Shown: positions 1,021 through 59,870 of the stretch, one piece after another
Position numbering within the stretch: position 1 is the stretch's first letter
How the letters are laid out: every line of letters starts with the position of its first letter
Assembly (NCBI GenBank): GCA_964652795.1
Contig: CAZZBF010000003.1
Span: forward strand, 16,017 to 80,016
Direction of reading: 5' to 3'
DNA: 64,000 nt
Source: an uncultured Syntrophales bacterium
GTDB lineage: Bacteria > Desulfobacterota > Syntrophia > Syntrophales > JADFWA01
Position numbers and translations under genes: made by a program
Notes under the pieces: generated by a model
Told to the model about the DNA's origin: nothing
Database searches by the model: none
What the model saw: only the letters and a program-made list of their open reading frames with translations

Positions 1021-2601
1021 TTAATTGTCATCTTTATTTGGGGGTACCAGGGGAAGGGTAACGGTGAATTTGGTTCCCCGGTTTACCTTAGATTCTACTT
1101 CAATATTACCGCCGTGTTGTTTTACAATTCCGTAAACCACTGAAAGGCCTACTCCGGTACTCTTTTCCGTTTCCTTAGTGGTAAAATAAGGCTCAAATAT
1201 ATTGGGAATAATATCTTTAGGTATTCCTTTACCATTATCAGTTACTGTGAATTTAACCCGGTCATTTTTTGCATTACAGTAAGTCTTAATTGTTACCTTT
1301 CCCCCACTGGGCGTAGCCTCAATAGAGTTCATAATCAAAGCGATCAGTACCTGCTGAAGGCTGGGATAGCACTGGATCAAGTCATTTTGCTGATCCAATT
1401 CTTTCAGTATCGTTATTCCTTTCATCTTAGCGCTGTGATTGATTACCTTAACACTGGTATCGATGATTTTGTTGAGATGTTCCTTCTTTAAAACGCCTAT
1501 TGTGCTCTTAGAAAAAAGGAGCAAATTTTTCACAATATCCCCGCATCTCTTTGCCTCATCGGCAATCAGGGAAAGGTTCTCTTTCGTCATTGCTATCGCT
1601 TCTTCGCTATTACTTTCTTCGTTCAGATGTCTTAACGAAAGTTTTGCATAGGAGAGAATTCCGGAAAGAGGGTTGTTGATTTCATGGGCAACCATTCCCG
1701 ATAGTTTTCCCAAGGAAGCCATCTTTTCTGAAAGTATCAGAGAAGATTGGGTTTTCTTGAGCTTGTCGGACGATTCTTTCAACTTTGTGGTCATCTTATT
1801 GAAGGAGCTTGCCAGATCTCCAAGCTCATCCTGTGATTTCACATCGACCTTGTAGTCGAAATTAAGTTTGGCTACTTCTTTGGTGCCCTTGGCAAGCTTT
1901 TTTATGGGGGAGTGAATCATTTTCCATATAAAGGAACCTACGAGCACGGCCGTTATCAGCATAAGAATAATAGAATAGATAATTATTTTTCGTTTGGTAG
2001 CTGTAATTTTGGCATCGACCTTCTCAAGAGATAATTTAACGTCTAAAAGACCGAGCAGTTTTACATCAGGAGAGTGAGCGTGGCATCCGGCATTATAACA
2101 ATCGGGTTCATTTTCTATGGGATTGATCATACCGAGCTGGCGGTATCCTTCCTTCGATTTTAATATTCGAGTGCGGTCTTTTGTGGGAAGAATTACTTTT
2201 GCAGACCCTTTCGCATGGCAAACATAACACTGCTCGGCTTGCTTATCGACAATATGATTCAGCTCGGTCGAATTATTGGAAAAAGAAACTCTACCTTTTT
2301 TATTGTAGATACGGACCCCGTCGATATCCTGTTCCTTCCCAATACTCATAATAGTACTGGTCAGGTCGTCGCGGCTGTTTTTTAACATACTGTAGCGAGT
2401 GGCGCGCTTGATTATATTGCTTATATGAATTGCGTTGGCGATGACGCTTTCCTTGTCGTGTGACATAAAAGTATTGATGTTTTGGTATAAAATAATAGTG
2501 AATGCTATTGCCAGCAGAAAGATCAGAAGAAGAAAGAGTTTTGCGCTGATCGAGCGGCCGGTAATAAGAAAATTTTTTAATATCCGATAAAAATAATTCA
2601 T
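1021..2601 (-). CDS. sensor histidine kinase with periplasmic c-type haem domain
   Basis: 526-aa ORF. Two TM segments (LFLLLIFLLAIAFTIILY, IIIYSIILMLITAVLVGSFIW) bracket a periplasmic domain with CYVCH (CXXCH) and CYNAGCH (CX4CH). These are followed by H-box MVAHEINNPL and ATPase motifs DNGKGIP and GVGLSVV. It ends 39 nt upstream of the response regulator. Confidence 0.85.
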   Translation of the reverse strand: MNYFYRILKNFLITGRSISAKLFLLLIFLLAIAFTIILYQNINTFMSHDKESVIANAIHISNIIKRATRYSMLKNSRDDLTSTIMSIGKEQDIDGVRIYNKKGRVSFSNNSTELNHIVDKQAEQCYVCHAKGSAKVILPTKDRTRILKSKEGYRQLGMINPIENEPDCYNAGCHAHSPDVKLLGLLDVKLSLEKVDAKITATKRKIIIYSIILMLITAVLVGSFIWKMIHSPIKKLAKGTKEVAKLNFDYKVDVKSQDELGDLASSFNKMTTKLKESSDKLKKTQSSLILSEKMASLGKLSGMVAHEINNPLSGILSYAKLSLRHLNEESNSEEAIAMTKENLSLIADEAKRCGDIVKNLLLFSKSTIGVLKKEHLNKIIDTSVKVINHSAKMKGITILKELDQQNDLIQCYPSLQQVLIALIMNSIEATPSGGKVTIKTYCNAKNDRVKFTVTDNGKGIPKDIIPNIFEPYFTTKETEKSTGVGLSVVYGIVKQHGGNIEVESKVNRGTKFTVTLPLVPPNKDDN

Positions 2602-3045
2602 GGATAACCTAATTCATTTACGAGGTGAGTGTTGCTATTATCTGTATTTACATGAAGTTATCAAACAGAGAGCTTGCATTTTCTTCTCGTATATTATTTT
2701 CTATATTAACATTACTGATGATTTAATCAACAGTTATTCATCAGCCAGTATGTCGGGTTGTGCCATGATTATTCACCTTGCTAATGGTAGATTTTGTTGT
2801 GTTAAAAATAATCTATCATTCTGTTCTTGCATTATCAATCAGGCTTTAATTTTTTTCATAGAAGGTTAAAGTTGCAGATTGGGTAGGTAATAGTTTTCCA
2901 CGGTTGCACCGCACAGGCACTGAGAAGTATAACATAGCGAACGTATTTTACAAGGCAGGCTTTTGGGGAATTAATTTTATAACTTGCAATTTCTTTAATA
3001 TGTGTTATTCACCGATGATAAAAATTTATGGAGGGAATTTAAGTT

Positions 3046-3486
3046 ATGAGTAAAGATGTAGTAGTTAAAAGAAGTTTGGTTTTCCTTTTTGTTGTGGTTT
3101 TGTTCTTTTCTCTTTCTGCTTTATCCTTTGCCGATATGACCGCGAAGGATTTTGTGAATGAGGCAAAGAAGACTGTAAAGGAAATTTCGGTTGCTGAAGC
3201 TAAAGCTGCAATAGATTCCGGTAAAGCGATAATTCTTGATTGCAGAACCGATAAGGAGTTCAAAAAAGGCCATATCCCCAAAGCAATTAATATACCCAGA
3301 GGACTTTTGGAATTTACAGTTGGTAAAAAAATTCCTGATAAGTCAGCTTATATTATTTGTTATTGCAAGTCAGGGGGACGATCATGTCTTAGTACCTGTT
3401 CATTAGGTAAAATGGGATATAAAAATGCGGTCAGTATGACCGGAGGTTGGAAAGCCTGGTTAAAGGCTGGTTATCCTGTAGAGTAA
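3046..3486 (+). CDS. exported single-domain rhodanese (sulfurtransferase, Sud-like)
   Basis: 146-aa ORF with an N-terminal signal-like segment LVFLFVVVLFFSLSALSFA. It has the rhodanese fold signature and active-site loop CYCKSGGRS. The RBS GGAGGG lies upstream of the ATG. Confidence 0.8.
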   Translation: MSKDVVVKRSLVFLFVVVLFFSLSALSFADMTAKDFVNEAKKTVKEISVAEAKAAIDSGKAIILDCRTDKEFKKGHIPKAINIPRGLLEFTVGKKIPDKSAYIICYCKSGGRSCLSTCSLGKMGYKNAVSMTGGWKAWLKAGYPVE

Positions 3487-3563: not shown

Positions 3564-4187
3564 CTAATGTTCTTCTTTATCCGCGTACCCGGTGATCATG
3601 GAAATAAAATCAGCAAAAATGGTATGACCCGTGGTGGCCAAATAAAGGTGAGCAATCAGGAAAGCGGTAAAAATGATTGCCATAATGAAGTGAATAACGG
3701 CTATTACTTTCAACCCACCGATAGCGATGATAAACCCTATGAATAAAGAAGGGAAGAGATACAAAATACCGCTTACCAGTAGAATAGGCATCATCAGGAA
3801 CATAAACTTAAAATATGCCATCTTTTGCAGTGGATTGAACTTATTATCCTCGGATGCGCTGTAGGGATGCGGCTCATCCTTGAATATACCGTAAGCATAA
3901 AATCTTGCCTGCCTGGGGATACCCGGATACAAGTCCTCTTTCTTCGGTATGTAGTGAGAAACCCGTGTTGAAATCAAATTGTAAAACAACCAGAGAAAGA
4001 AATCGAGAACCACAAGTATTCCTGACCATTCATGAACAGTTATGGCGTTTGAAAAAGACCCAAAAAAGTTTACAGAGTCAGGCCAGTGTATCTGTATGCC
4101 TGATACTATGAGCAATATGATAAGGACAGCATGTATCCAGTGCCATATTCTCTCGGTTAATGGATGTAAATACATTTTCTCAGACAT
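3564..4187 (-). CDS. membrane dihaem cytochrome b (FdnI/HydC/PhsC-like quinone-interacting subunit)
   Basis: The track ORF is 3564..4229. The likely start is ATG 4187 (MSEKMYLHPLTERIWHWIHAVLIILLIVSGIQIH), 4 nt after the TAG of the cytochrome c gene, with AAGGAG upstream. It has four hydrophobic helices with conserved His residues. Confidence 0.75.
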   Translation of the reverse strand: MSEKMYLHPLTERIWHWIHAVLIILLIVSGIQIHWPDSVNFFGSFSNAITVHEWSGILVVLDFFLWLFYNLISTRVSHYIPKKEDLYPGIPRQARFYAYGIFKDEPHPYSASEDNKFNPLQKMAYFKFMFLMMPILLVSGILYLFPSLFIGFIIAIGGLKVIAVIHFIMAIIFTAFLIAHLYLATTGHTIFADFISMITGYADKEEH

Positions 4188-4191
4188 CTTC

Positions 4192-5856
4192 CTATTTTCT
4201 CCTTCTCGTGATAAAGCGCAGTGTCCCATGTGTGAGACATCCCGCGAAAGTGAGAACTACTATAAGAATTCCAAGAACATCAATAGCCGGGATCCTGTTG
4301 CTGCCCACGACATAGGCACCCTCTTCCATAAGTTCCTTGTTTGTGAAATTCCAGCTCATCGTATCTTTAGGAGTGCCTTCTTCTTTTGTTAAGAGAATGC
4401 TCTTGTCTGAATGGCATTGTTTGCAATCCTTTATGGGTGCTTCCAGTGACGGTTTATGGCAGGTTAAACAATCAACTCTTGTTAGGTGGAGCTCCGCCTG
4501 TGATAACCAGTCATGCCGGTCAAAAATGGAAGGTTTGTCAGGAACAATAACATTTTTATTGGCTGATATTTCCTGAGACCTCACATCTTGTTTCCTCAGA
4601 AAAAGTTTACTGTTATTATGACATGAAATACAACTTTCATTTTGTGGAGTTGAGAGCTGAATATTGTGCGGAGTAGCCATTTTCCAAGTAGGCGCATTAT
4701 CAAAATTTGTCAATCCATCCTTAACATAAAAATCAAACAACTCTCTATTCACCGGGATATGTCGTACAGTTACGTATTTTTCAGGTCTTTCCTCTGTCGG
4801 TTTTATGTTCAGACCAATTTTAAAGGCCATAACTGACGGATCGCTTTCAAAATAGGGATTACCTGTCTTATCCTTGGCAACATGACAGTTAAAACAGTTT
4901 TTATAGGAAACAGAGTGGCAGATCTGACAACTTACCTTATCTTTATGAATCACATGGCCAGGATTATCGTCGTCTTCTCCAGTGTGGCAGTTTACACATT
5001 TAGCTCGGTTTGTAACTTCATATCTATCAAAATGAGCTTCGCCGCTTCCATGCATTTCTTCTCCGGAATGGCAATTCTTGCACCCCAACCCATGCTCGCC
5101 GTGGTGAACATCTGCAGGTATACCTTCATTTTCACCAAAAAATTCTTTTCCGATCCTGCTTCCATGGCAAGAAGTACAGTTGGTTCTAACAGGTGGAGTC
5201 TTCTTAAAGAAATGTCCCTCAATCAATCCTCCCTCTACGGATGAGGGACGGCTGACGTGGCACTGACCGCAACTGCTATGGCAAGACATACAATGTGTGC
5301 CCATAGCGTTATTAATCTTGTCAAGCACATTTTTGTCCGGGTTTGCTCTAAGGTTTATCTTATTTGTGAAAGGAGCAAGTGTGACATGGAGGTTGGTCGT
5401 ATTTTTTTCTACGATTTCTTCATGACATTCGCCACAACTTTCCGAGGGACTATGATATGAGGGATCTTTTATCAAGCCTTCATGGGCGGTTTCCCAGTTA
5501 TCATCTTCCGGGTTGCCACCATGGCATGTGTTACAGGAAATCTCGCCATGACAATCTTCCTCGATAAAGTCGCTGTCTACGAACAGCTTTTCATATGGCT
5601 CCAACGGAGCCACAGCTCCTCCTCACCCCTCCCCCTTGGGTTCAGCTGGTTCACATGCTGCCTCTGGTTTTGATGCCTCGATGGCTCTGATTATTTCAAT
5701 AAGCTTTTTTGCGCTGGTATGACATGACACACAGCTACTTTCTTCGGCATTTAGTTTCGTGGGAAAGTGCCATAGAAAAAATGTAAAAGAGGCAATTAAA
5801 AATAAAAATAATACCGGTTTACAGATGCTTCTTTCCGCAATTCGAAAATAATTCAC
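4192..5856 (-). CDS. membrane-anchored 13-haem c-type cytochrome, candidate selenoprotein (in-frame TGA at 5623..5625)
   Basis: Track ORFs 5623..5856 (signal anchor plus CVSCH) and 4192..5613 (12 CXXCH, C-terminal TM helix, no signal peptide) share one frame and are split only by TGA. A hairpin follows the TGA with the same spacing as the selD SECIS. If the TGA is a true stop, these are two CDSs. Confidence 0.65.
5595..5625 (-). promoter_or_regulatory. candidate SECIS hairpin after in-frame UGA of the cytochrome c gene
   Basis: mRNA reads UGA GGAGGAGCU GUGGCUCC-GUU-GGAGCCAU. The stem is 8 bp (one G.U) and the loop occupies nt 21-23 from the U of UGA, identical to the geometry at selD. Confidence 0.5.
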
Positions 5857-6021
5857 TTCATTTTCCCCCCGTGTGATTGAGGTTCGCTATAGTATATTTA
5901 GAAGGAAAAAGCAAGTAAAAAGATAATTGCTGTGTTTTTCCGCCGGACAGAGTGAATCTTCTTGACACGTATCCGAAGTGCTTTATATGATGGGATAACG
6001 ACTTTTCTAAGAGGAGATGTT

Positions 6022-6501
6022 ATGGATAAGGTTCCGATTAGCAGAACGGGTTTTGAAAAATTAAAAGAAGAATTAGAGTATTTAAAAAAAGTTGTAGTAC
6101 CTGAAAATATAAGAGAGATTGAAGAGGCCAGAGCCCATGGTGATATATCGGAGAATGCGGAGTACGAAGCAGCCAAAGAGAGACAGGGATTCATTCAGGG
6201 AAAGATACAGGAAATAACAAATAATCTTGCCAGTTCAATTATTATTGATCCTAAAGAACTTACCGAAGATAGGGTTGTTTTTGGGTCGACCGTTACCATC
6301 GAAGACGTCAATACAGAAGAAATCGTTAAATATCAACTCGTTGGCCCCTTTGAATCCGATGTGGATAAGAACAGAATTTCAGTCACTTCCCCTATAGGAA
6401 AGGGTCTCATCGGTAAAGAAATAGGTGACGAAGTCAGTGTTAAAACACCGGGTGGTGTAAGAGAGTTTGAAATTATTGATATTTCTATAAGTGATATGTA
6501 A
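6022..6501 (+). CDS. greA: transcription elongation factor GreA
   Basis: The track starts at TTG 5962, but ATG 6022 is preceded by GAGGAG. MDKVPISRTGFEKLKEELEYLKKVVVPENIREIEEARAHGDISENAEYEAAKERQ is the GreA coiled-coil N-domain, and the length is 159 aa. Confidence 0.95.
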   Translation: MDKVPISRTGFEKLKEELEYLKKVVVPENIREIEEARAHGDISENAEYEAAKERQGFIQGKIQEITNNLASSIIIDPKELTEDRVVFGSTVTIEDVNTEEIVKYQLVGPFESDVDKNRISVTSPIGKGLIGKEIGDEVSVKTPGGVREFEIIDISISDM

Positions 6502-37582: not shown

Positions 37583-38635
37583 TTATATTACCCGGATTTT
37601 ACTTTTCGGTTCTGAGATTACCTCACCAACAATGGCTGCCTCCTCCATGCCTTCATCGTGCAACTTTTTGAGTAACTCATCTGCCTGATTTGGTGGTAAA
37701 GCAATTAATAGACCGCCGGCAGTTTGCGGATCAAAGAGAATATCCACCATCCAGTCGGGACAGTCGGTATCCTTCTTGATCATGTGCATGCGAAATTCCC
37801 TGTTTCTGTGCAAGCCTCCCGGCACTATCCCCATTTCTACTAATTCCCGGATTTCCCGGAAATAGGGAACGGAGGATGAATAGATAATCATTCCCACATC
37901 GCTTCCTTCTATCATCTCGCACGCATGACCGAGGAATCCGAAACCGGTTACATCCGTGCAAGCGTGAATATCGGCAAAATCCGCCATCAACTCTGCCGCC
38001 TTTTTATTTAAAGTGAGCATGCATTTTATCGATTGAGCCACCAGGTCATCATCGGCCATTTCCCCCTTCAAGGCTGTGTTTACAATCCCTGTTCCCAGAG
38101 ATTTGGTCAGGATGAGTTTGTCACCGGTCCTTGCGCCCCTGTTGAAAAGTACCTTGTCAGGGTGGATAATCCCGGTAACGGATAGCCCATACTTTAGCTC
38201 ATCATCTTCCACACTGTGTCCGCCGACCAGAACTACGTTCGCCTCCCGCATCTTATCCAGACCGCCGAGAAGAACCTGCTGGAGTATAAGAATATCCATC
38301 TTATTTATCGGAAAACATATTATATTCATGGCCGTAATCGGTTTTCCTCCCATGGCATAGACATCGGATAGTGAGTTTACCGCGGCAACCTGACCGAAAG
38401 TGTAAGGATCATCAACAATCGGAGTGAAAAAATCGAGTGTCTGAATAATGGCGAGGTCATCGCTCAGCTTATACACACCGGCATCCTCAGCGCTTTCCAT
38501 ACCCGCAATCAGGTTCGGATCGGACTGGAGTGGCAGTCCACGTAAAGCCTTGTCAAGGTCCCCCGGACCTATCTTGCAGGCTCACCCGGCACCATGTACC
38601 GTTTCCGTAAGACGTATTTTCGTTCTTTTATCCAT
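37583..38635 (-). CDS. selD: selenide, water dikinase SelD, selenocysteine-containing (UGA at 38582..38584)
   Basis: The track ORF 37583..38500 starts at an internal Met. The upstream in-frame reading is ATG 38635 MDKRTKIRLTETVHGAG-UGA-ACKIGPGDLDKAL..., and the UGA aligns with catalytic Cys17 of E. coli SelD (GAGCGCK). A hairpin lies downstream. Confidence 0.92.
38556..38584 (-). promoter_or_regulatory. SECIS element of selD
   Basis: UGA GCCUGCAAGAU AGGUCC-GGG-GGACCU, a 6-bp stem with the G-rich loop at nt 21-23 from the UGA. Confidence 0.8.
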
Positions 38636-39004: not shown

Positions 39005-39754
39005 TCACTTGATTTCACCAGACAGCAACGCCGCACCCAGAGCGCCCACCATTTGCGGGTCTTCGGGTACCATAATCTTTTGGTCGAGTACCTCTTCCAA
39101 CAGACAGCGCGCACATGGATTTCGTGCGACGCCCCCCGCAAAGATGATAGGTTCTTTAACAGAGACCCTCTTTAACATTCCTACGGCCCGGCTTACTACA
39201 GAACGGTGCAGACCCAGGGCGATGTCTCTCCGGTTAACTCCTTTGGCTACAAGTGAAGTGACTTCCGATTCCGCAAACACGGTACACATACTGCTTATCT
39301 GGACATCTTTGGTTGCCTGAAGTGCTTCAACACCAAACTGATCTAAACTAAAACCGAGGGTGTTCGCCATAATTTCCAAAAATTTTCCGGTCCCGGCCGC
39401 GCATCTGTCGTTCATCTCGAACTTGACGACTTTTCTCTCATTACTAACAGCAATGGCTTTGGAGTCCTGACCTCCGATATCCAGTATCGTCCTGACTTCA
39501 GGAAACAGAGACCTTGCGCCCACAGCATAGGCCTTGATTTCTGTGACCGTGGGTGTATTAAAGGCAAGTTCAAAGAGATGACGTCCATAACCGGTGGCCA
39601 TAATTCTGTCATACTGAACCCCTTCAAGGAGTTCTTTTGCCTGCGTCATCGGATCAAAGCCTGACTCTGCCCGCTTGCTTTCAATAATTCCTCTTTCGTT
39701 TAACACCACCAGTTCAATGGTTCGGGAACCGATGTCGATACCGGCGAGTCTCAT
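39005..39754 (-). CDS. HgdC/BcrAD-BadFG-type ATP-dependent [4Fe-4S] activase
   Basis: 249 aa with MRLAGIDIGSRTIELVV (ASKHA phosphate-1) and the cluster cysteines in NDRCAAGTGKFLE and SSMCTVFAESE. Confidence 0.88.
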   Translation of the reverse strand: MRLAGIDIGSRTIELVVLNERGIIESKRAESGFDPMTQAKELLEGVQYDRIMATGYGRHLFELAFNTPTVTEIKAYAVGARSLFPEVRTILDIGGQDSKAIAVSNERKVVKFEMNDRCAAGTGKFLEIMANTLGFSLDQFGVEALQATKDVQISSMCTVFAESEVTSLVAKGVNRRDIALGLHRSVVSRAVGMLKRVSVKEPIIFAGGVARNPCARCLLEEVLDQKIMVPEDPQMVGALGAALLSGEIK

Positions 39755-39799
39755 TCAGAAAACCTCCTCTATACTCGAAAGCCGTTTCTGTCGCATTAT

Positions 39800-40378
39800 C
39801 TAATATCCAGGTTTAATCACCCCTTTTATGGAGGTGACGGTCTTCTCGGGGAACAGAAGGCAACCATGACTAATTTTTAATCCAGGGATAGAATCCTTGA
39901 CCAGATCGAAAAATATCTGCTGTGCCTTAATCGAAAAATCGCCATACCCGGGGCTGAATCGGTGGGTGGTGGCAAATCCTTCTTCCTCGCACCGCCGGGA
40001 GATTTCCATGTCTGTCTTTTTCACCTCTTCTTCCACTATAAAACTCCCCAATCGGTCCAGTATGTATCCCTTAAAGACTTCATTTTCTCTAAAATATTCT
40101 CTGGATCTGCGATCTATATCTTCCCCCAGGGTTACCACGAGCAACCAGACTTTCTTTGCCTGTGCCAACAACTTAGTAATTGAGCTGCTTTGGCTGGCAT
40201 AAGGATAAAACAGTGTGAAAAACTCATCTATTGTTATGCATTTTCGCCACTCTTTGGTATTCAATAAGCCTGAGGATTCATCCAATATGTAAGAGATCTT
40301 TTCTATTATCTGCCTATTAACCGGAGCCCCAAGGTACTTAAGCAATCTTCGAGACACTGTAGTATCGTCTTTTACCAT
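39800..40378 (-). CDS. methionine-synthase (MetH) activation-domain-like protein
   Basis: ATG 40378 gives MVKDDTTVSRRLLKYLG. The C-terminal THRFSPGYGDFSI...PEKTVTSIKGV resembles the B12-dependent MetH reactivation (SAM-binding) domain. The track TTG 40429 start overlaps the upstream remnant. Confidence 0.65.
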   Translation of the reverse strand: MVKDDTTVSRRLLKYLGAPVNRQIIEKISYILDESSGLLNTKEWRKCITIDEFFTLFYPYASQSSSITKLLAQAKKVWLLVVTLGEDIDRRSREYFRENEVFKGYILDRLGSFIVEEEVKKTDMEISRRCEEEGFATTHRFSPGYGDFSIKAQQIFFDLVKDSIPGLKISHGCLLFPEKTVTSIKGVIKPGY

Positions 40379-40382
40379 TTGA

Positions 40383-40515
40383 TTATATGTTGACCTTTGA
40401 TTGTAAAAGAAGATTCTCAAACAGCCCAACTGCCTTTACCGCATCACGCGAATATGCATCTGCGCCGAAGAAACGAGAGACTGTATTATATCCAGCGGCT
40501 CTTCCAATTATAAGT
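40383..40515 (-). pseudogene. 3'-terminal remnant of a cobalamin-binding-domain gene
   Basis: The minus-strand frame reads KLIIGRAAGYNTVSRFFGADAYSRDAVKAVGLFENLLLQSKVNI*. It aligns to FIVGGAAVNSEVSRSIGADGYARDAVRAVNLVEKLLKQ at the C-terminus of ORF 41476..43104. There is no upstream continuation, because the EamA gene stop abuts it. Confidence 0.75.
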
Positions 40516-41361
40516 TTACACGCGTGACAGAAAAATGATAGCAACTGAGGCGATAACGATTGCTATTCCTTTTTCCCGAGTTAACTGTTCCATCCGCATT
40601 GAAGCGGCCAATCCTAAAGCAACCAAAAAACCCATGTTAGCAATGGGAATAACTACTGTAGCTTCACCATATTTAAGGGCAAGTGTCAGAAAAAGAGCGA
40701 TAAAAAAAATCATTATGCCTGATAACCCGGAATAAAGTGATGTCTTTACACTCAAATGTAAATTCTTTTCTATAAATGCAGCATAAAGTATACCTCCAAC
40801 AATCCAACAAACAGCGACAATCGCCAGCATTAATTGAGGATCTCCATGTTTCAATATACCTACCTTTGTGAGAACCCCATAACATGCTCTGGACAAGGAG
40901 GCCAATATAGCAACTCCAAAAAACATCATAAAATGATCTCTCTTGACCGGAAACATTAGTGGAGTTTCGCATAGAAATAAAACAGCTATGATTGCCAGCA
41001 GTATTCCCAATCCTTTTATGTATCCAATTGGTTCGCACAAGAAAAAAAATGATAAAATCACTACTCCAACAGTGTTTAGCCGATAGACAGTCGAACCAAG
41101 ACTGACATCGAGATGCTTTAGACTTTCCAACAAGAGAATATTGGATAGAAAAAGGATTATACCCGCAGAAAAGCCAAATTGAAGAGTAGGTATATTGTAT
41201 ACTATAGCATTATTGTTTACCAAAACGACTATTCCCTGAAGGCATATCCAGACCAAACCAATGCCGCAAATATACATGCCTCGAGAGCGGGGCTTAACAG
41301 AATACTTTTTAAAGATAAAGTCATTCAGCCCCGCAAATACCAAGCTAAGCAGTGCAAACAT
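40516..41361 (-). CDS. EamA/DMT-family transporter
   Basis: 281 aa with about 10 TM helices and a duplicated 5-TM architecture. Confidence 0.7.
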   Translation of the reverse strand: MFALLSLVFAGLNDFIFKKYSVKPRSRGMYICGIGLVWICLQGIVVLVNNNAIVYNIPTLQFGFSAGIILFLSNILLLESLKHLDVSLGSTVYRLNTVGVVILSFFFLCEPIGYIKGLGILLAIIAVLFLCETPLMFPVKRDHFMMFFGVAILASLSRACYGVLTKVGILKHGDPQLMLAIVAVCWIVGGILYAAFIEKNLHLSVKTSLYSGLSGIMIFFIALFLTLALKYGEATVVIPIANMGFLVALGLAASMRMEQLTREKGIAIVIASVAIIFLSRV

Positions 41362-41475
41362 AACGGCAGTTTTAATGGTAGAAACCTCTCTTTCTTTGCA
41401 AGAGTATTTTTAATTACTTTTTTCGAAAAATAGCCAAAAACTCTGCGGGGAAGAAGAACCCATCTATTTTGGCAT

Positions 41476-43104
41476 TTATGAAGAAATGTCGCCCCTTGGC
41501 TGTTTAAGGAGTTTTTCAACAAGGTTAACTGCCCTTACGGCATCACGGGCATATCCGTCGGCCCCAATAGATCGAGAAACCTCGCTATTTACGGCAGCTC
41601 CGCCAACTATAAAGAGGGGCTCTTTTATCCCCTCTTTATAAAATGAATTAATGACTCTTGCCATTTCTTTTCTTGAATCTGTTGTAAATGCGGAGAGGCC
41701 CATTATTGAAGGGCGGAATTTCTGATAAGCTTTTATGAATGCATCTTCAGCAATATCAACGCCCAAGTCAACCACATTGTGCCCATGTGTCTCAAGGAAT
41801 ATCCTCACAAGGTTCTTCCCTATTTCATGTATGTCGCCTTTTACCGTACCAATGAGAATGGTAGGCTTATTCGGCCCGTTGATTTCAAGTCTATGCTCCA
41901 GAATATGAAATCCCTCATAGAACGCATCGACCATGAGAAGGATAGACGGCAAAAAACACTTTTTGACCTCATACATGGCGCTACCCTTCCGAATAGCTCG
42001 CGTCAAGCCTTCGGTAACAATGTTTAACGGGTCAATACCGGCCTCGAGGCCCGCCGCCACTAAATTCTTTGTTACCTCGCGCTCACCCACATACACATTA
42101 TCGCTCATCTTTGACAGCAAAGAGATATGAGATTCCAGCCTATTAATAGACCTTCTGCCGGTTTCCACAAAAAGTCTGATATTTTCAATGGGGGCGGACG
42201 GCGGGACAGCGCAACCGGTGCTTAAAACGAAGTTATCCCTCATGCCCATCATGGAAACCAGATCCGAGGTCTGAGAAATAATATCATCCGCTGATCCAAG
42301 TTCAACAATCTCAACCGGATCAATATTTCCGATTATATAGACATCTTCGGGTATTTCGTCCTCCACCGCTAAAAGCTCCATACAGTTATCGAAGCTGATC
42401 CCGCGCACACCTGTTTTCACTATTTCCGGGACAATCCGATAGGTATCGCCACAAATATGAAGGATTGTTGGGATAGAGGTAAATAGCTCAAAAATCCTTT
42501 TCAAGAAACTGCCGGCAAAATTCCAAAACTGGTCGGGAGGAATCAGTGCGGCAAGGGGATCAGAAACCCATAACAAGTTTGCTCCTGACTCTACAAGGTA
42601 CAGAGCGTATCTTTTTGCGCATTCAAAGGTTTTTTCAAGGACAGCAAGGATTTCCTGTTGGTTTTCCGCAAGCCCTTTAAGTATACTCTCCTCACCTGCT
42701 ACCTGCCCGGCTACTGTGAATGGTCCGTAAAGCTGAGCTACTCTTAGCCTGTCAGGAAATTCCTTCTTCATCTCCTTCAGTACCTGCGCATTCACCTTCA
42801 TCCTGGGGACATTGGTCGGATGCGGAACACAAAAGACTTGAGGCGGAGATTGAACAGAGGGCATCCCTTCCCTGGAATACTTTATCGTGGCCCCCATAGC
42901 CTCTGCCTGAATGGCGATATCACCAAGGTAAAACAGGAGGTCGGAGTCAATCTTTTCATAGTACCGTCTTAAAGCTTCGAACTTTAAGTCCGCCCTCCAG
43001 AGAATGTCATCAATACCAGCGTCAACCATCTGACAAGAAGGCAGAGCATTAATTGGAAATATTAAGTGTCGCATAATAAAATTCCTTACGAGACTTTTCA
43101 ACAC
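41476..43104 (-). CDS. CmuA-like fusion: URO-D/MtaA-family methyltransferase plus cobalamin-binding domain
   Basis: 542 aa. The N-terminal ~340 aa are URO-D/MtaA-like. The C-terminal domain has the B12 motif GDIHEIGKNLV (DxHxxG) followed by GHNVVDLGVD and MGLSAF. The start may be the Met at MRHLIFP. Confidence 0.8.
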   Translation of the reverse strand: MLKSLVRNFIMRHLIFPINALPSCQMVDAGIDDILWRADLKFEALRRYYEKIDSDLLFYLGDIAIQAEAMGATIKYSREGMPSVQSPPQVFCVPHPTNVPRMKVNAQVLKEMKKEFPDRLRVAQLYGPFTVAGQVAGEESILKGLAENQQEILAVLEKTFECAKRYALYLVESGANLLWVSDPLAALIPPDQFWNFAGSFLKRIFELFTSIPTILHICGDTYRIVPEIVKTGVRGISFDNCMELLAVEDEIPEDVYIIGNIDPVEIVELGSADDIISQTSDLVSMMGMRDNFVLSTGCAVPPSAPIENIRLFVETGRRSINRLESHISLLSKMSDNVYVGEREVTKNLVAAGLEAGIDPLNIVTEGLTRAIRKGSAMYEVKKCFLPSILLMVDAFYEGFHILEHRLEINGPNKPTILIGTVKGDIHEIGKNLVRIFLETHGHNVVDLGVDIAEDAFIKAYQKFRPSIMGLSAFTTDSRKEMARVINSFYKEGIKEPLFIVGGAAVNSEVSRSIGADGYARDAVRAVNLVEKLLKQPRGDISS

Positions 43105-56858: not shown

Positions 56859-57147
56859 ATATCTTTATTTGCTCTTTCAGTGACGATAGAATTTTTCCTC
56901 TTTCAGTGACGGGGATTTCCTTCCATCTATTCGAAACAATGCCGAACCGTTTATTCAGCCGGATGCGGTCCGAGGGAAAAAGAGAAATTTCCCCTTCTCT
57001 CTGTCCTGCAATATATGACCATCTTTTCCCTAATATCTCGGCAAACCATATGTTAACACCATATTCTTTCTTAACAAGGTCTGCTACACGGGCAAGTTTT
57101 CCTGTCAGATTTTCCTTAGAAATAGAGGTCCCTTTCCCCATTTTCAA
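56845..57147 (-). CDS. hypothetical 100-aa protein between hydG and hydE
   Basis: The ORF overlaps the hydG 3' end by 32 nt and the hydE start by 14 nt, which suggests translational coupling. I recognise no motif in MKMGKGTSISKENLTGKLARVADLVKKEYGVNIWFAEILGKRW.... Confidence 0.55.
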   Translation of the reverse strand: MKMGKGTSISKENLTGKLARVADLVKKEYGVNIWFAEILGKRWSYIAGQREGEISLFPSDRIRLNKRFGIVSNRWKEIPVTERGKILSSLKEQIKIYGQG

Positions 57148-58609
57148 TCCTTTTGCAATATTCCGTCAATTTCGGATATATAGAAGGCATTTGTTCTTTG
57201 ATTTCATTCATCTCTCTTTCTATTACTTTTTCTCCCATTTTCTTTGTTCCCTCACTGGCAAAATCATTCAGCCATTCCCTGAAGGTGAGCACCGCGTTGA
57301 GTTTGCAGAAACGACCTTCCTGTCCGCATTTCAGGAGTTTCATAATAAGTTTGCCGGTTCTCCCGCATCTGTAGCCCGCTGTGCAGAAAGATGTAATATA
57401 CCCCATTTCGGCAAGCTCTTTTATGAACTCATCCAGACTTCTTGGATCACCCAGAAGAAACTGTTGCCTTTTTGCCTCCTGTTCATCATATTTCTCACTA
57501 TAGGTACCAATGCCGATTTTCGTACCCGCGTCCGCCTGAGTAACTCCCAGCGGGATAACCTCACGGCGTAGCTGTGCACTTTCCCTCGCAGTTAAAATAA
57601 GACCCGTGTAAGGAACTGAAAGTCTTATTATAGTTACCAGTTTTTTAAAATCATCATCACAAACCCTGTAATCGGTTGAGCTTATAAAGGGAGTGTTTTC
57701 TGCCGGCTGTAGTCTTGGGATTGAAATAGTATGGGGTCCTACCCCAAATTGCTCTTCTAAATTTAAGGCATGGTACAACAAACCCATAACCTCGAATTTC
57801 CAGTTATACAGGCCAAAGAGCACGCCTATGCCCACGTCATCTATGCCGGCATCCATTGCCCTATGCAGAGAATAGAGTCTCCACCCATAATTTGATTTTG
57901 GTCCTTCAGAGTTGGGATGAACATCCCTATAGGTTTTATGATGGTATGTCTCTTGAAATACCTGATATGTTCCTATGCCCACTTCGTTTAGCATTCTGAG
58001 CTTTTCAATGCTCATTGAGGCAACATTGACATTAATTCTTCTTATTTCACCTCTTCCAATTTTTGTTTCGTAGATGGTACGAAGTACATCGGCAATGTAA
58101 TCGGCGTCCATGCTGGGATGTTCTCCACAATCCAGCATGAGACGTTTATGGCCCACGGAAATCATCGCCTTTGTTTCCTCTCGTACTTGATCCAGAGATA
58201 ATCGATTTCTCACTTCCTTTAGATTGTCTTTCCTGAAAGCACAATATAGGCAATCGTTAACACAAAGATTACCAAAATAAAGAGGCGCAAATGTTACGAT
58301 ACGGTTATCATAAACTTTTCTCTTCACCTCACCCGCCACCTCAAACATTTCATTCCATAACTCTTCATCTTGCACATTCAGTAGCGCTGCGGTTTCATCC
58401 CGGCTGAGAGTTTCTATGGAAAGGGATTTTTGAAGGATCTCTCTTATTTTTTTAGATTCGGGATTTTTATTCCTTGCAATTTCCCCCCATATTTTATCGT
58501 CGGATATAAAATCTTTCCCGTTGGTCATGTATCTTGTTATCTCATCCTCTTCGATAACACTTTTTGCCCAGTTTGACTCTGATTGGTTAAGAACTGATCC
58601 TGCGTTCAT
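57116..58609 (-). CDS. hydG: [FeFe]-hydrogenase maturase HydG (radical SAM tyrosine lyase)
   Basis: 497 aa with CVNDCLYCAFR and the C-terminal Cys cluster FCTAGYRCGRTG...CGQEGRFC. Confidence 0.9.
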   Translation of the reverse strand: MNAGSVLNQSESNWAKSVIEEDEITRYMTNGKDFISDDKIWGEIARNKNPESKKIREILQKSLSIETLSRDETAALLNVQDEELWNEMFEVAGEVKRKVYDNRIVTFAPLYFGNLCVNDCLYCAFRKDNLKEVRNRLSLDQVREETKAMISVGHKRLMLDCGEHPSMDADYIADVLRTIYETKIGRGEIRRINVNVASMSIEKLRMLNEVGIGTYQVFQETYHHKTYRDVHPNSEGPKSNYGWRLYSLHRAMDAGIDDVGIGVLFGLYNWKFEVMGLLYHALNLEEQFGVGPHTISIPRLQPAENTPFISSTDYRVCDDDFKKLVTIIRLSVPYTGLILTARESAQLRREVIPLGVTQADAGTKIGIGTYSEKYDEQEAKRQQFLLGDPRSLDEFIKELAEMGYITSFCTAGYRCGRTGKLIMKLLKCGQEGRFCKLNAVLTFREWLNDFASEGTKKMGEKVIEREMNEIKEQMPSIYPKLTEYCKRIENGERDLYF

Positions 58610-59870
58610 TTTTTAAATCCTCCTCGATTTCTTTCATTTTCTTGTCAAAAGCAACCAGTGCCGCGGGGAAGGGGGTCAGGGTTCTTCTCAATACACCTTG
58701 CAGAAAGGAGATGGCCACGCCATAATTTGTAATGGGCACCTTTGCCTCACACGCCTTTTGAATCCTGTTTAACATTTCTTTTCTGGTGAGCATACAGGCT
58801 CCGCAGTGTATGATGAGACTGTATTCTCTTAAGTTTTCCGGGTAATCCCTTCCCGCATAAACATCAATATCCAGTTCACAGCCTAAATATTGTTTTAGCC
58901 ACCTTGGTATTTTTACCCTCCCGATATCGTCCTGAACAGGGTGATGGGAGCATGCCTCCGCGATCAATACCTTGTCACCCGGGTTTAAAGTTTCTATAAA
59001 GGCGGCGCCCCTTGCCGCTTCTGCGAGGTCTCCCTTGTGCCTCGCGAAGAGGATGGAGAATGTGGTGGCCGGAACACCTTTCGGCGTGTCGGCACACATC
59101 TTCTGAACAACCTGGGAATCGCAGACAACGATATCGGGTTGCCTGTTTAAGGTGTTCAATGTATAGGAGAGTTCTCTTTCCTTTACAATCAGCGCCCCCG
59201 CGTCGCTATCCAGCGCGTCCCTTATAGTCTGAACTTGGGGCAGTATGATTCTCCCCTTTGGTGCCTCGAGGTCTATGGGAACGACGAGAACGGCCAGTCC
59301 TCCCGGAACAAGAAGGTCTCCGATTATCGGTGGTGGTTGGATGAAATCATCCGGGCAGACTTCAATCAGGTGTTGTTTTAAAGATTCTATATAACTATCT
59401 CTTTTCCCCCAGTCTATGCTGGACGCAAAAACCACATGTTCGGTCTTTTCTGAAATTAGTTTTATAAATTCGGGAGCCGGCTTTCTCTGATCAATCTTGT
59501 TTATTACTGCAATTGCGGGAACTTTTCTCTTCTTCGTTTCGCGGAACACTTCATCTTCAAAATTCGTCCATATATCCGGTTCTACAACAAGGAACACGAC
59601 ATCCGCTCTCTCGAATACATTGTGCGTCTTCTTCAGTCTCAAGGTCGAAAGGATGGATACGTCATCCAGGCCTCCAGTATCGAGAAAAAGTACCGGCCCC
59701 AGGGGTAGAAGCTCCATCGCCTTTTCCACAATATCGGTGGTTGTTCCCGCGATGGGCGATGTGATGGCTATATCCTGTCCCATGATAAGATTGAGCAAAC
59801 TTGATTTGCCCACATTTGTCCTGCCGAAGAGGGCAATTTGCAACCTATCTCCCTTTGGCGTTCCTTTCAT
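58587..59870 (-). CDS. hydF: [FeFe]-hydrogenase maturation GTPase HydF
   Basis: 427 aa with the G1 motif GRTNVGKSS, DTGG, NKID and the C-terminal cluster motif EACSHH...HCGACML. Confidence 0.9.
   Translation of the reverse strand: MKGTPKGDRLQIALFGRTNVGKSSLLNLIMGQDIAITSPIAGTTTDIVEKAMELLPLGPVLFLDTGGLDDVSILSTLRLKKTHNVFERADVVFLVVEPDIWTNFEDEVFRETKKRKVPAIAVINKIDQRKPAPEFIKLISEKTEHVVFASSIDWGKRDSYIESLKQHLIEVCPDDFIQPPPIIGDLLVPGGLAVLVVPIDLEAPKGRIILPQVQTIRDALDSDAGALIVKERELSYTLNTLNRQPDIVVCDSQVVQKMCADTPKGVPATTFSILFARHKGDLAEAARGAAFIETLNPGDKVLIAEACSHHPVQDDIGRVKIPRWLKQYLGCELDIDVYAGRDYPENLREYSLIIHCGACMLTRKEMLNRIQKACEAKVPITNYGVAISFLQGVLRRTLTPFPAALVAFDKKMKEIEEDLKNERRISS

Follow-up and report, generated by a model that had tools for sequence, protein, structure and literature searches.

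A conserved in-frame TGA in a multihaem cytochrome c gene of an uncultured Syntrophales bacterium points to an apparently uncatalogued selenoprotein family

The stretch of DNA considered here (64 kb, contig CAZZBF010000003.1 of an uncultured Syntrophales bacterium; the window) carries on its minus strand two open reading frames (ORFs) for haem-binding proteins that are separated by an in-frame TGA. Comparison with homologous loci argues that positions 5856..4192 very probably make up a single gene, which codes for a multihaem cytochrome c with the UGA recoded as selenocysteine (Sec). On the same comparative evidence, we are highly confident that Sec is the residue inserted at the UGA at 5625..5623. 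The cytochrome apparently represents a selenoprotein family of the multihaem cytochrome c type that is not yet catalogued. A first-pass annotation, made from the DNA letters alone, had suggested a Sec-containing 13-haem cytochrome at this place; the conservation of the TGA, the covariation in a hairpin downstream of it and the homologues with cysteine (Cys) at the same position support that suggestion.

As the first-pass annotation had described, the two ORFs share one frame of the minus strand and nothing but TGA GGA GGA GCT stands between them; the frame as a whole runs from the GTG at 5856 to the TAG at 4194..4192 (Table 1). The translation of the downstream ORF was also as described, with 12 CXXCH motifs (starting at residues 108, 141, 189, 196, 227, 259, 287, 310, 321, 409, 463 and 478 of the full product), a C-terminal hydrophobic helix and no N-terminal export signal; its N-terminus (VAPLEPYEKLFVDSD) is hydrophilic. 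The upstream ORF contributes a hydrophobic N-terminus and the haem site CVSCH, followed by a helix-forming stretch (KKLIEIIRAIEAS) and ...PKGEG before the TGA; the residues right after it read GG-AVAPLEPYEK. With 13 CXXCH motifs, an N-terminal signal and the Pfam multihaem domain Cytochrome_C7 (PF14522, 53.5 bits against a cut-off of 24.8), the joined product has the attributes of a multihaem c-type cytochrome. Generic multihaem domains were the only Pfam matches of the protein.

The GTG start is the one used in the NCBI annotation of the orthologue P0001, a protein with tryptophan (Trp) at the site. The N-terminus that follows is basic, then hydrophobic, and ends ...KLNA/EE (the slash marks the apparent cleavage point), while those of homologues end RSA/EN, SQA/YE or VSA/ED; equivalent signal peptides with A-x-A-like ends were present in 76/76 full-length loci. 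Because of these endings the stretch looks cleavable, and it is probably a signal peptide and not the permanent membrane anchor that had been proposed for it. If the UGA is decoded as Sec with the help of a hairpin of the SECIS (selenocysteine insertion sequence) type starting 10 nt downstream (5613..5595), the product would be a precursor of 554 residues: a Sec-pathway (secretory) signal peptide at 1-37, one haem c, the motif GEG-U-GG with Sec78, 12 further haems c and a C-terminal membrane helix.

The conservation of the TGA codon was assessed in a scan of one genome per GTDB species, which detected at least 318 stretches encoding relatives and returned 80 loci. The site was readable in 79 of these 80 species-level loci (runs of N hide the Sec codon in L013, and in L017 they cover the N-terminal module, leaving the N-terminus incomplete). 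The codon was TGA in 77/79 loci and TGG in 2/79; TAA or TAG occurred in none (0/79), so that every one of the 77 loci with a stop codon here had TGA. The scanned loci include those of two isolates, Desulfosarcina alkanivorans PL12 and D. widdelii PP31; NZ_AP021874, NZ_AP021875 and OY761459 are complete genomes with TGA. An upstream ORF with a signal peptide and a CXXCH motif, in frame across the stop, was present in every locus read. For comparison, the ordinary stops of the 39 long ORFs in the window were TAA in 21 cases, TAG in 10 and TGA in only 8, and TGA is thus the rarest of the three. A reassignment of TGA in the genetic code was rejected as an explanation, because TGA ends these 8 of 39 ordinary ORFs.

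Protein conservation extends to both sides of the stop: the signal peptide, CxxCH and KLIxITREIA upstream, and GEG-U-GG followed by (V)APLEP or (V)EPLAP downstream. The codon always falls within GEG-x-GG, where G77, U78 and G79 never vary and G75 and G80 hardly do. The Sec would therefore sit in the most conserved motif of the N-terminal module, instead of in the loose linker to which it had been assigned at first.

A protein search gave 1672 homologues. Among the best 120 of them, 118 start at (M/V/L)APLEP directly after the TGA, and all of these lack a signal peptide on the downstream protein, despite 10-12 CXXCH motifs. The remaining two, P0001 and P0066, span the whole gene with Trp at the site, and TGG was verified for both at the DNA level; P0001 comes from a Syntrophales metagenome-assembled genome that is syntenic with the window, and P0066 from the complete genome CP070657. 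The first-pass annotation had proposed to look among orthologues for downstream proteins with their own signal peptides, for the codon at this position and for the hairpin, and to inspect raw reads. The orthologues agreed with its proposal on each count, with TGA as the only stop and Cys in distant homologues. As for the reads, the TGA is also present in the assembly of run SRR2187629, which may however go back to the reads of the window itself.

The other feature directly around the TGA is the hairpin, for which the first-pass annotation had placed the loop at nt 21-23, with the U of UGA as nt 1. We found the hairpin as described, with the loop GUU in that position, and the 60 nt that follow the UGA have a folding energy of -22.5 kcal/mol (z = -3.2); 0/200 shuffled sequences folded as well. 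In bacteria, a SECIS element is recognized by its distance from the UGA and by a G in its apical loop; the stem-loop here lies right downstream of the UGA, at SECIS distance, and has the G. In an ungapped alignment of 76 sequences, 96.4% of the stem cells were paired, and the GUU loop was invariant. Two pairs showed full compensatory changes (A-U to C-G, 40:27, and G-C to U-A, 52:21), and these swaps correspond to the change of the peptide from VAPLEP to VEPLAP. The observed covariation score was reached by 0/500 column shuffles, and shifting the 3' partner abolished the pairing. In three loci with one additional codon, the hairpin shifts along with it. TGA and hairpin recur together in 77 of the 79 species-level loci, a pattern that chance cannot account for.

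The synonymous sites in the hairpin are informative as well. For the GTG, CCG and TTG codons within it, the third-position entropy was 0.10, 0.00 and 0.00 bits, respectively, compared to 1.7-1.96 bits in the Gly codons flanking the TGA; proline was coded by CCG in 68/68 sequences and leucine by TTG in 73/73. Since the CCG and TTG sites are frozen while the neighbouring Gly codons vary, selection at the hairpin codons acts on the RNA and not on the protein. No Rfam family matched the hairpin (region 5480..5720 at E<=10, and the whole window at gathering score), which is expected because bacterial SECIS elements are short and variable.

Distant full-length homologues came from an exhaustive phmmer search of 1.84 billion representatives, with P0066 as the query. 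A search with an N-terminal profile yielded only fragments and upstream ORFs of ~71 aa; it missed even P0001 and P0066 and was therefore unfit for counting the Cys forms. Seven homologues had Cys in the Sec column: P0280 (motif GEGCGG), P0321 (GGGCGG), P0257 and P0270 (SCGG), P0274 and P0284 (GECCGG), and P0295. An eighth candidate, P0256, showed a DGCGG motif by eye, but it is misaligned in the column alignment. At the DNA level, the loci L087 and L088 have the Cys codons TGT/TGC, and the hairpin at +10 is absent there. Trp occupied the Sec column in three homologues: L001 (codon at 6232-6234), L002 (6199-6201) and P0263. All homologues with a sense codon, Cys or Trp, are single proteins. The comparative sequence evidence thus supports the equivalence of Sec and Cys at the site, the recoding of UGA and the single-gene structure. 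Our reading of the Trp forms is that they may be recent escapes from Sec dependence, because TGG, one transition away from TGA, is the easiest escape when the Sec supply is lost.

The organism itself appears to decode UGA as Sec, because the selenophosphate synthetase SelD encoded in the window contains Sec. The in-frame TGA of selD (38584..38582) has the context MDKRTKIRLTETVHGAG-U-ACKIGPGD (HGAG-U-ACK), and the mechanical ORF list holds only the 305-aa part after this TGA. The 6-bp hairpin of selD, AGGUCC-GGG-GGACCU, has its loop at nt 21-23, the same place as in the cytochrome hairpin, as the first-pass annotation had pointed out. Conservation of the TGA, the hairpin, the Cys homologues and the Sec-containing SelD together make up the usual comparative evidence for a bacterial selenoprotein.

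The alternatives to a Sec-recoded gene differ in what the TGA would do. An improbable one is that the UGA is read through without Sec: Trp or another near-cognate residue would be inserted, the hairpin would be a read-through stimulator or a translational attenuator, and the TGA would regulate the amount of full-length cytochrome, with Trp as the functional residue. The three natural homologues with TGG at exactly this codon, two of which (L001 and L002) keep the hairpin, fit such a scheme, and near-cognate decoding of UGA as Trp is known to occur in bacteria. Still, the recurrent sense residue in distant homologues is Cys, with at least 7 representatives compared to 3 for Trp, and the TGG forms can be explained by the single transition mentioned above. 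The geometry of the hairpin and its G-first loop match the SECIS element of selD in the window, and all the organisms concerned come from Sec-rich lineages. Moreover, to our knowledge an efficient, programmed, hairpin-driven UGA-to-Trp read-through is not an established mechanism in bacteria.

Less probable again is a pair of genes, in which the TGA ends a 77-aa monohaem membrane protein and the 12-haem protein re-initiates at the GTG 12 nt downstream. Gene callers, GenBank and RefSeq do annotate two ORFs (e.g., DSCA_51140 and DSCA_51130), most homologues have a start-type codon (GTG, ATG or TTG) at that position, and GGAGG follows the TGA in the window. Against this, the downstream product would lack an export signal although it is a c-type cytochrome. 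Neither TAA nor TAG occurs as the stop in any of 77 species, the frame is always kept across it, and the Cys and Trp homologues are single proteins. Besides, the putative restart codon is CTG or GTA in some species (L018, L078 and L043). The GGAGGAG to which the first-pass annotation had drawn attention is indeed present; it consists of two Gly codons that are free to differ in their third bases from one homologue to the next, and for this reason it is not a conserved Shine-Dalgarno sequence. With such start codons and a variable GGAGG, the comparison gives no support to a conserved re-initiation signal after the TGA. An artefact or a pseudogene is scarcely credible, be it an error of sequencing or assembly or a nonsense mutation that arose recently and in this genome alone. 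TGA does differ by a single base from the TGG of the closest annotated full-length orthologue, P0001. On the other hand, the same TGA is found in 77 species-level genomes, complete genomes of cultured isolates among them, and in the SRR2187629 assembly, possibly from shared reads; synonymous sites flanking the TGA vary and the TGA does not. Conservation of the TGA across species-level genomes excludes a sequencing error or a private nonsense mutation.

With the gene read as a Sec-recoded cytochrome, its nearest parallels are known selenoproteins. The first-pass annotation knew of no described multihaem-cytochrome selenoprotein; one has been demonstrated, MccSep/ExtKL (GSU2937-2936) of Geobacter sulfurreducens, which was purified, contains selenium and acts as a polysulfide reductase (PMC13510729). 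A 2026 review lists 119 prokaryotic selenoprotein families, with ExtKL and two more families of this kind among them, the GSU2204 family and the Sec-type octahaem tetrathionate reductases (PMC13188914). Like the cytochrome described here, MccSep/ExtKL is a periplasmic multihaem c-type protein whose gene is annotated as split at an in-frame UGA, with a SECIS-like hairpin just downstream, homologues with Sec or Cys, and a link to sulfur and selenium. In contrast, MccSep has five haems and its Sec in PDG-U-PTP near the C-terminus (PMC13510729), whereas the present family has 11-13 haems and an N-terminal Sec in GEG-U-GG; the haem-ligating partner Cys of MccSep has no conserved counterpart in it, and a membrane anchor and a cytochrome b partner set it further apart.

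The GSU2204 family (NF041027) and the octahaem tetrathionate reductases (TIGR04315) resemble the cytochrome in being CXXCH proteins with one Sec from related anaerobes, and they differ from it in haem number, motif and Sec position. At E<=10, neither the MccSep/ExtKL model NF040886 nor NF041027 gave a hit. The same was true of NF049953 ('hypothetical protein DG', motif GUxG), whose inclusion in NCBIfam release 20 is unconfirmed. TIGR04315 gave only 5.8 bits for P0030, compared to a cut-off of 375, and no hit for the window protein. The cytochrome family has no model of its own in NCBIfam release 20, and the similarity to ExtM, ExtN and ExtS was weak. The family is also absent from the selenoprotein table of PMC13188914, and the main text of the Olavius symbiont selenoproteome paper makes no mention of cytochromes or haem (PMC1976440). 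We found no description of the family in the open-access literature, and an earlier description elsewhere is possible.

The family is large in Thermodesulfobacteriota, widespread among sulfate reducers and syntrophs, and it comes in three architectures. The short form (~445 aa, 1+10 haems) is soluble and was found in 66 loci, mostly of Desulfobacterales and relatives. The long form (~555-580 aa, 1+12 haems) belongs to Syntrophales, including the window, and keeps the C-terminal transmembrane helix in 12/12 loci. The fused form (~960 aa; P0029 and P0030) has further haems and a cytochrome b domain. No chalcogen residue other than Sec78 is conserved outside the CXXCH motifs. The non-motif histidines, 9 strictly invariant and 2 nearly invariant for 11 core haems, are of a number that fits a haem ligated by Sec as well as a full set of His ligands; within its own module, haem 1 lacks a conserved distal His or Met. 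An AlphaFold2 model of the orthologue P0001 had a mean pLDDT (predicted local distance difference test) of 71.4, with a helix at 525-555 of pLDDT 86-95. Foldseek matched this model to no structure in the PDB, and in a profile search no PDB sequence was related at better than E = 0.027.

The neighbouring genes bear on the possible function. Directly downstream, in the window as in the other long-form loci (12/12), lies a gene for a cytochrome b membrane subunit. Its mechanical ORF, which begins with ATG 4229, shares 38 nt with the cytochrome c gene; ATG 4186, 6 nt past the cytochrome c stop, is the likelier start because AGAAGGAGAAAA precedes it and because it agrees with the gene of 207 aa that is called in L001 and L089. 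The product scored 91.9 bits with PF01292 (cut-off 30.1) and 170.9 bits with NF011582, thiosulfate reductase cytochrome B, which is below the equivalog cut-off of 204; it is thus a member of the wider PF01292 family and not a PhsC equivalog. Next comes, on the opposite strand, a rhodanese gene whose product has a signal peptide (...LSFA/DM) and the active-site loop CKSGGRS. A homologous rhodanese, with a signal peptide or as a lipoprotein, is directly downstream in 62/66 short-form loci and at most 4 kb away in 6/12 long-form loci; the Cys-form locus L088 also has a rhodanese next downstream. Fusions occur as well: P0260 (715 aa) has a C-terminal double rhodanese and P0263 an N-terminal rhodanese fragment, and these may be why JGI labels several plain members 'thiosulfate/3-mercaptopyruvate sulfurtransferase'. 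The ext cluster of Geobacter also contains a rhodanese-family protein, ExtH.

From this arrangement we infer, at somewhat less than an even chance, that the cytochrome is a periplasmic redox enzyme with Sec at its active site, rather than a pure electron wire. It would be a quinol-linked enzyme that reduces rhodanese-bound sulfane sulfur, or a related sulfur or selenium species, through its haem chain. Electrons would pass between the menaquinone pool and the co-transcribed PhsC-like cytochrome b, and the haem chain would carry them to or from the Sec site. From the conserved periplasmic rhodanese the selenolate would receive sulfane sulfur, in the form of persulfide or polysulfide (possibly thiosulfate or selenium species), and a Se-S bond would form there and then be reductively cleaved. 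It is a speculative and rather unlikely extension that Sec78 is an axial ligand of a haem, or lies immediately beside one, forming a selenolate-haem centre that reduces the rhodanese-supplied sulfane sulfur or selenium with electrons from the menaquinone pool via the 13-haem wire.

A function of this kind would resemble the polysulfide reduction by MccSep and, in overall logic, Sud/Psr or PhsABC. PhsABC and PsrABC are membrane-anchored reductases of sulfur compounds, and Sud is the rhodanese-type polysulfide-sulfur transferase of Wolinella; they share with the window cluster a PhsC-like cytochrome b as the quinol-side anchor and a periplasmic rhodanese as the presumed sulfur carrier. Their catalytic subunit has molybdopterin and FeS, while in the window it would be the haem c/Sec protein. 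TsdA, SoxAX and DsrJ, enzymes of sulfur metabolism with a His/Cys-ligated catalytic haem, offer another likeness, in that a chalcogen side chain by or on a haem does periplasmic S-S chemistry; they have no sequence similarity to the cytochrome. Such His/Cys-ligated haem enzymes are also discussed in PMC13510729.

Several observations weigh against the Sec cytochrome or against the function proposed for it. L001 and L002 have TGG and yet retain the full SECIS-like hairpin. Trp is unusual at the site of a catalytic Sec, and it means that the protein can exist with no chalcogen at this position; the motif is missing entirely from many of the more distant homologues. The covariation of the hairpin comes mainly from two large clades, and the compensatory changes therefore represent few independent events. 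Searches of the 64-kb window did not find selA, selB or tRNA-Sec, so that locally only SelD supports the use of Sec. Unlike in MccSep, no conserved partner Cys outside the CXXCH motifs accompanies the Sec. In the P0001 model, residues 64-84 around the Sec/Trp site have pLDDT <50, and the model is for this reason silent on the distance between Sec and haem. Finally, the functional model is drawn only from gene neighbourhood and gene fusions.

Table 1. Coordinates in the window of the cytochrome gene, its elements and the genes discussed with it.
Feature	Position	Strand	Basis or remark
Promoter-like site TTTACT-17-TATACT	5891..5919	-	upstream of cytochrome gene; consensus scan; weak evidence
Upstream ORF	5856..5626	-	GTG start, 77 codons
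GTG start and predicted signal peptide, residues 1-37 (MNYFRIAERSICKPVLFLFLIASFTFFLWHFPTKLNA/EE)	5746..5856	-	read from sequence
Haem-binding motif 1, C42-V-S-C-H46	5719..5733	-	invariant in 76/76 aligned full-length homologues
Conserved motif G-E-G-U-G-G, residues 75-80	5617..5634	-	alignment of homologues
In-frame TGA, predicted Sec codon (Sec78)	5623..5625	-	comparative sequence evidence
SECIS-like hairpin GUGGCUCC-GUU-GGAGCCAU	5595..5613	-	8-bp stem starting 10 nt after UGA (nt 13)
Downstream ORF	5613..4192	-	same frame as upstream ORF 5856..5626
Remainder of cytochrome, residues 79-554, 12 CXXCH, stop TAG 4194..4192	4192..5622	-	
C-terminal transmembrane helix, approx. AIDVLGILIVVLTFAGCLTHGTL, then RFITRRRK	4219..4287	-	read from sequence
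Cytochrome b membrane subunit (PhsC / Ni_hydr_CYTB type)	3564..4186	-	PF01292
Periplasmic single-domain rhodanese	3046..3486	+	PF00581, 80.9 bits; convergent with cytochrome b gene
selD (selenophosphate synthetase)	37583..38635	-	Pfam AIRS and AIRS_C matches

Besides the genes discussed above, a few other features of the window and of related loci could be of interest. The promoter-like site is a candidate only, because the number of sites in the consensus scan equals the shuffle expectation; a nearly identical stretch is present upstream of the gene in the syntenic locus L001. Just past the rhodanese gene, 1021..2601 on the minus strand codes for a HAMP/HisKA/HATPase_c sensor histidine kinase that could regulate the cluster. 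In the short-form locus L083 (Desulfobacterales), a sigma-54 PAS activator is upstream instead, and two adjacent DUF1573 ORFs (71 aa and 158 aa, at 2633-3334) lie ~4 kb upstream of the cytochrome. As DUF1573 is among the catalogued selenoprotein families (PMC13188914), a UGA may have split a single gene here too.

Adjoining selD, 39005..43104 on the minus strand holds genes for a BadF/BcrA-type ATPase, an EamA transporter and a URO-D-like protein fused to a B12-binding domain, a fusion of the corrinoid methyltransferase type. Further on, 57116..59870 codes for HydF and a radical-SAM/BATS protein, consistent with [FeFe]-hydrogenase maturation (HydF, with HydE or HydG). The neighbours of selD and the HydF/BATS genes fit an anaerobic syntroph.

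Every public annotation that we checked splits the gene, and the 12- or 10-haem cytochrome then seems to have no export signal. GenBank has two genes even in cultured Desulfosarcina, and in RefSeq the upstream ORF is a separate hypothetical protein; examples of such a "hypothetical protein" of ~70 aa beside the cytochrome are DSCA_51140/51130 in D. alkanivorans and DSCW_56430 in D. widdelii. Reading the UGA as Sec would repair hundreds of gene models, given the at least 318 stretches that encode relatives, and would add a family to the 119 listed in PMC13188914. The idea is directly testable, because two cultured isolates with complete genomes carry the gene.

In Geobacter, the long-sought sulfur reductase can be an enzyme that combines haem with Sec, as the work on MccSep established (PMC13510729). 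The present family would be a second one of this kind, unrelated to the first and tightly linked to a rhodanese and a quinol-oxidising cytochrome b; it suggests that Se-dependent sulfur or polysulfide chemistry on multihaem scaffolds is common in sulfate-reducing and syntrophic Thermodesulfobacteriota. Should the selenolate-haem centre exist, sulfur respiration would have two haem/selenium routes of independent evolutionary origin, the second of them widespread among sulfate reducers and syntrophs and hidden from current annotation.

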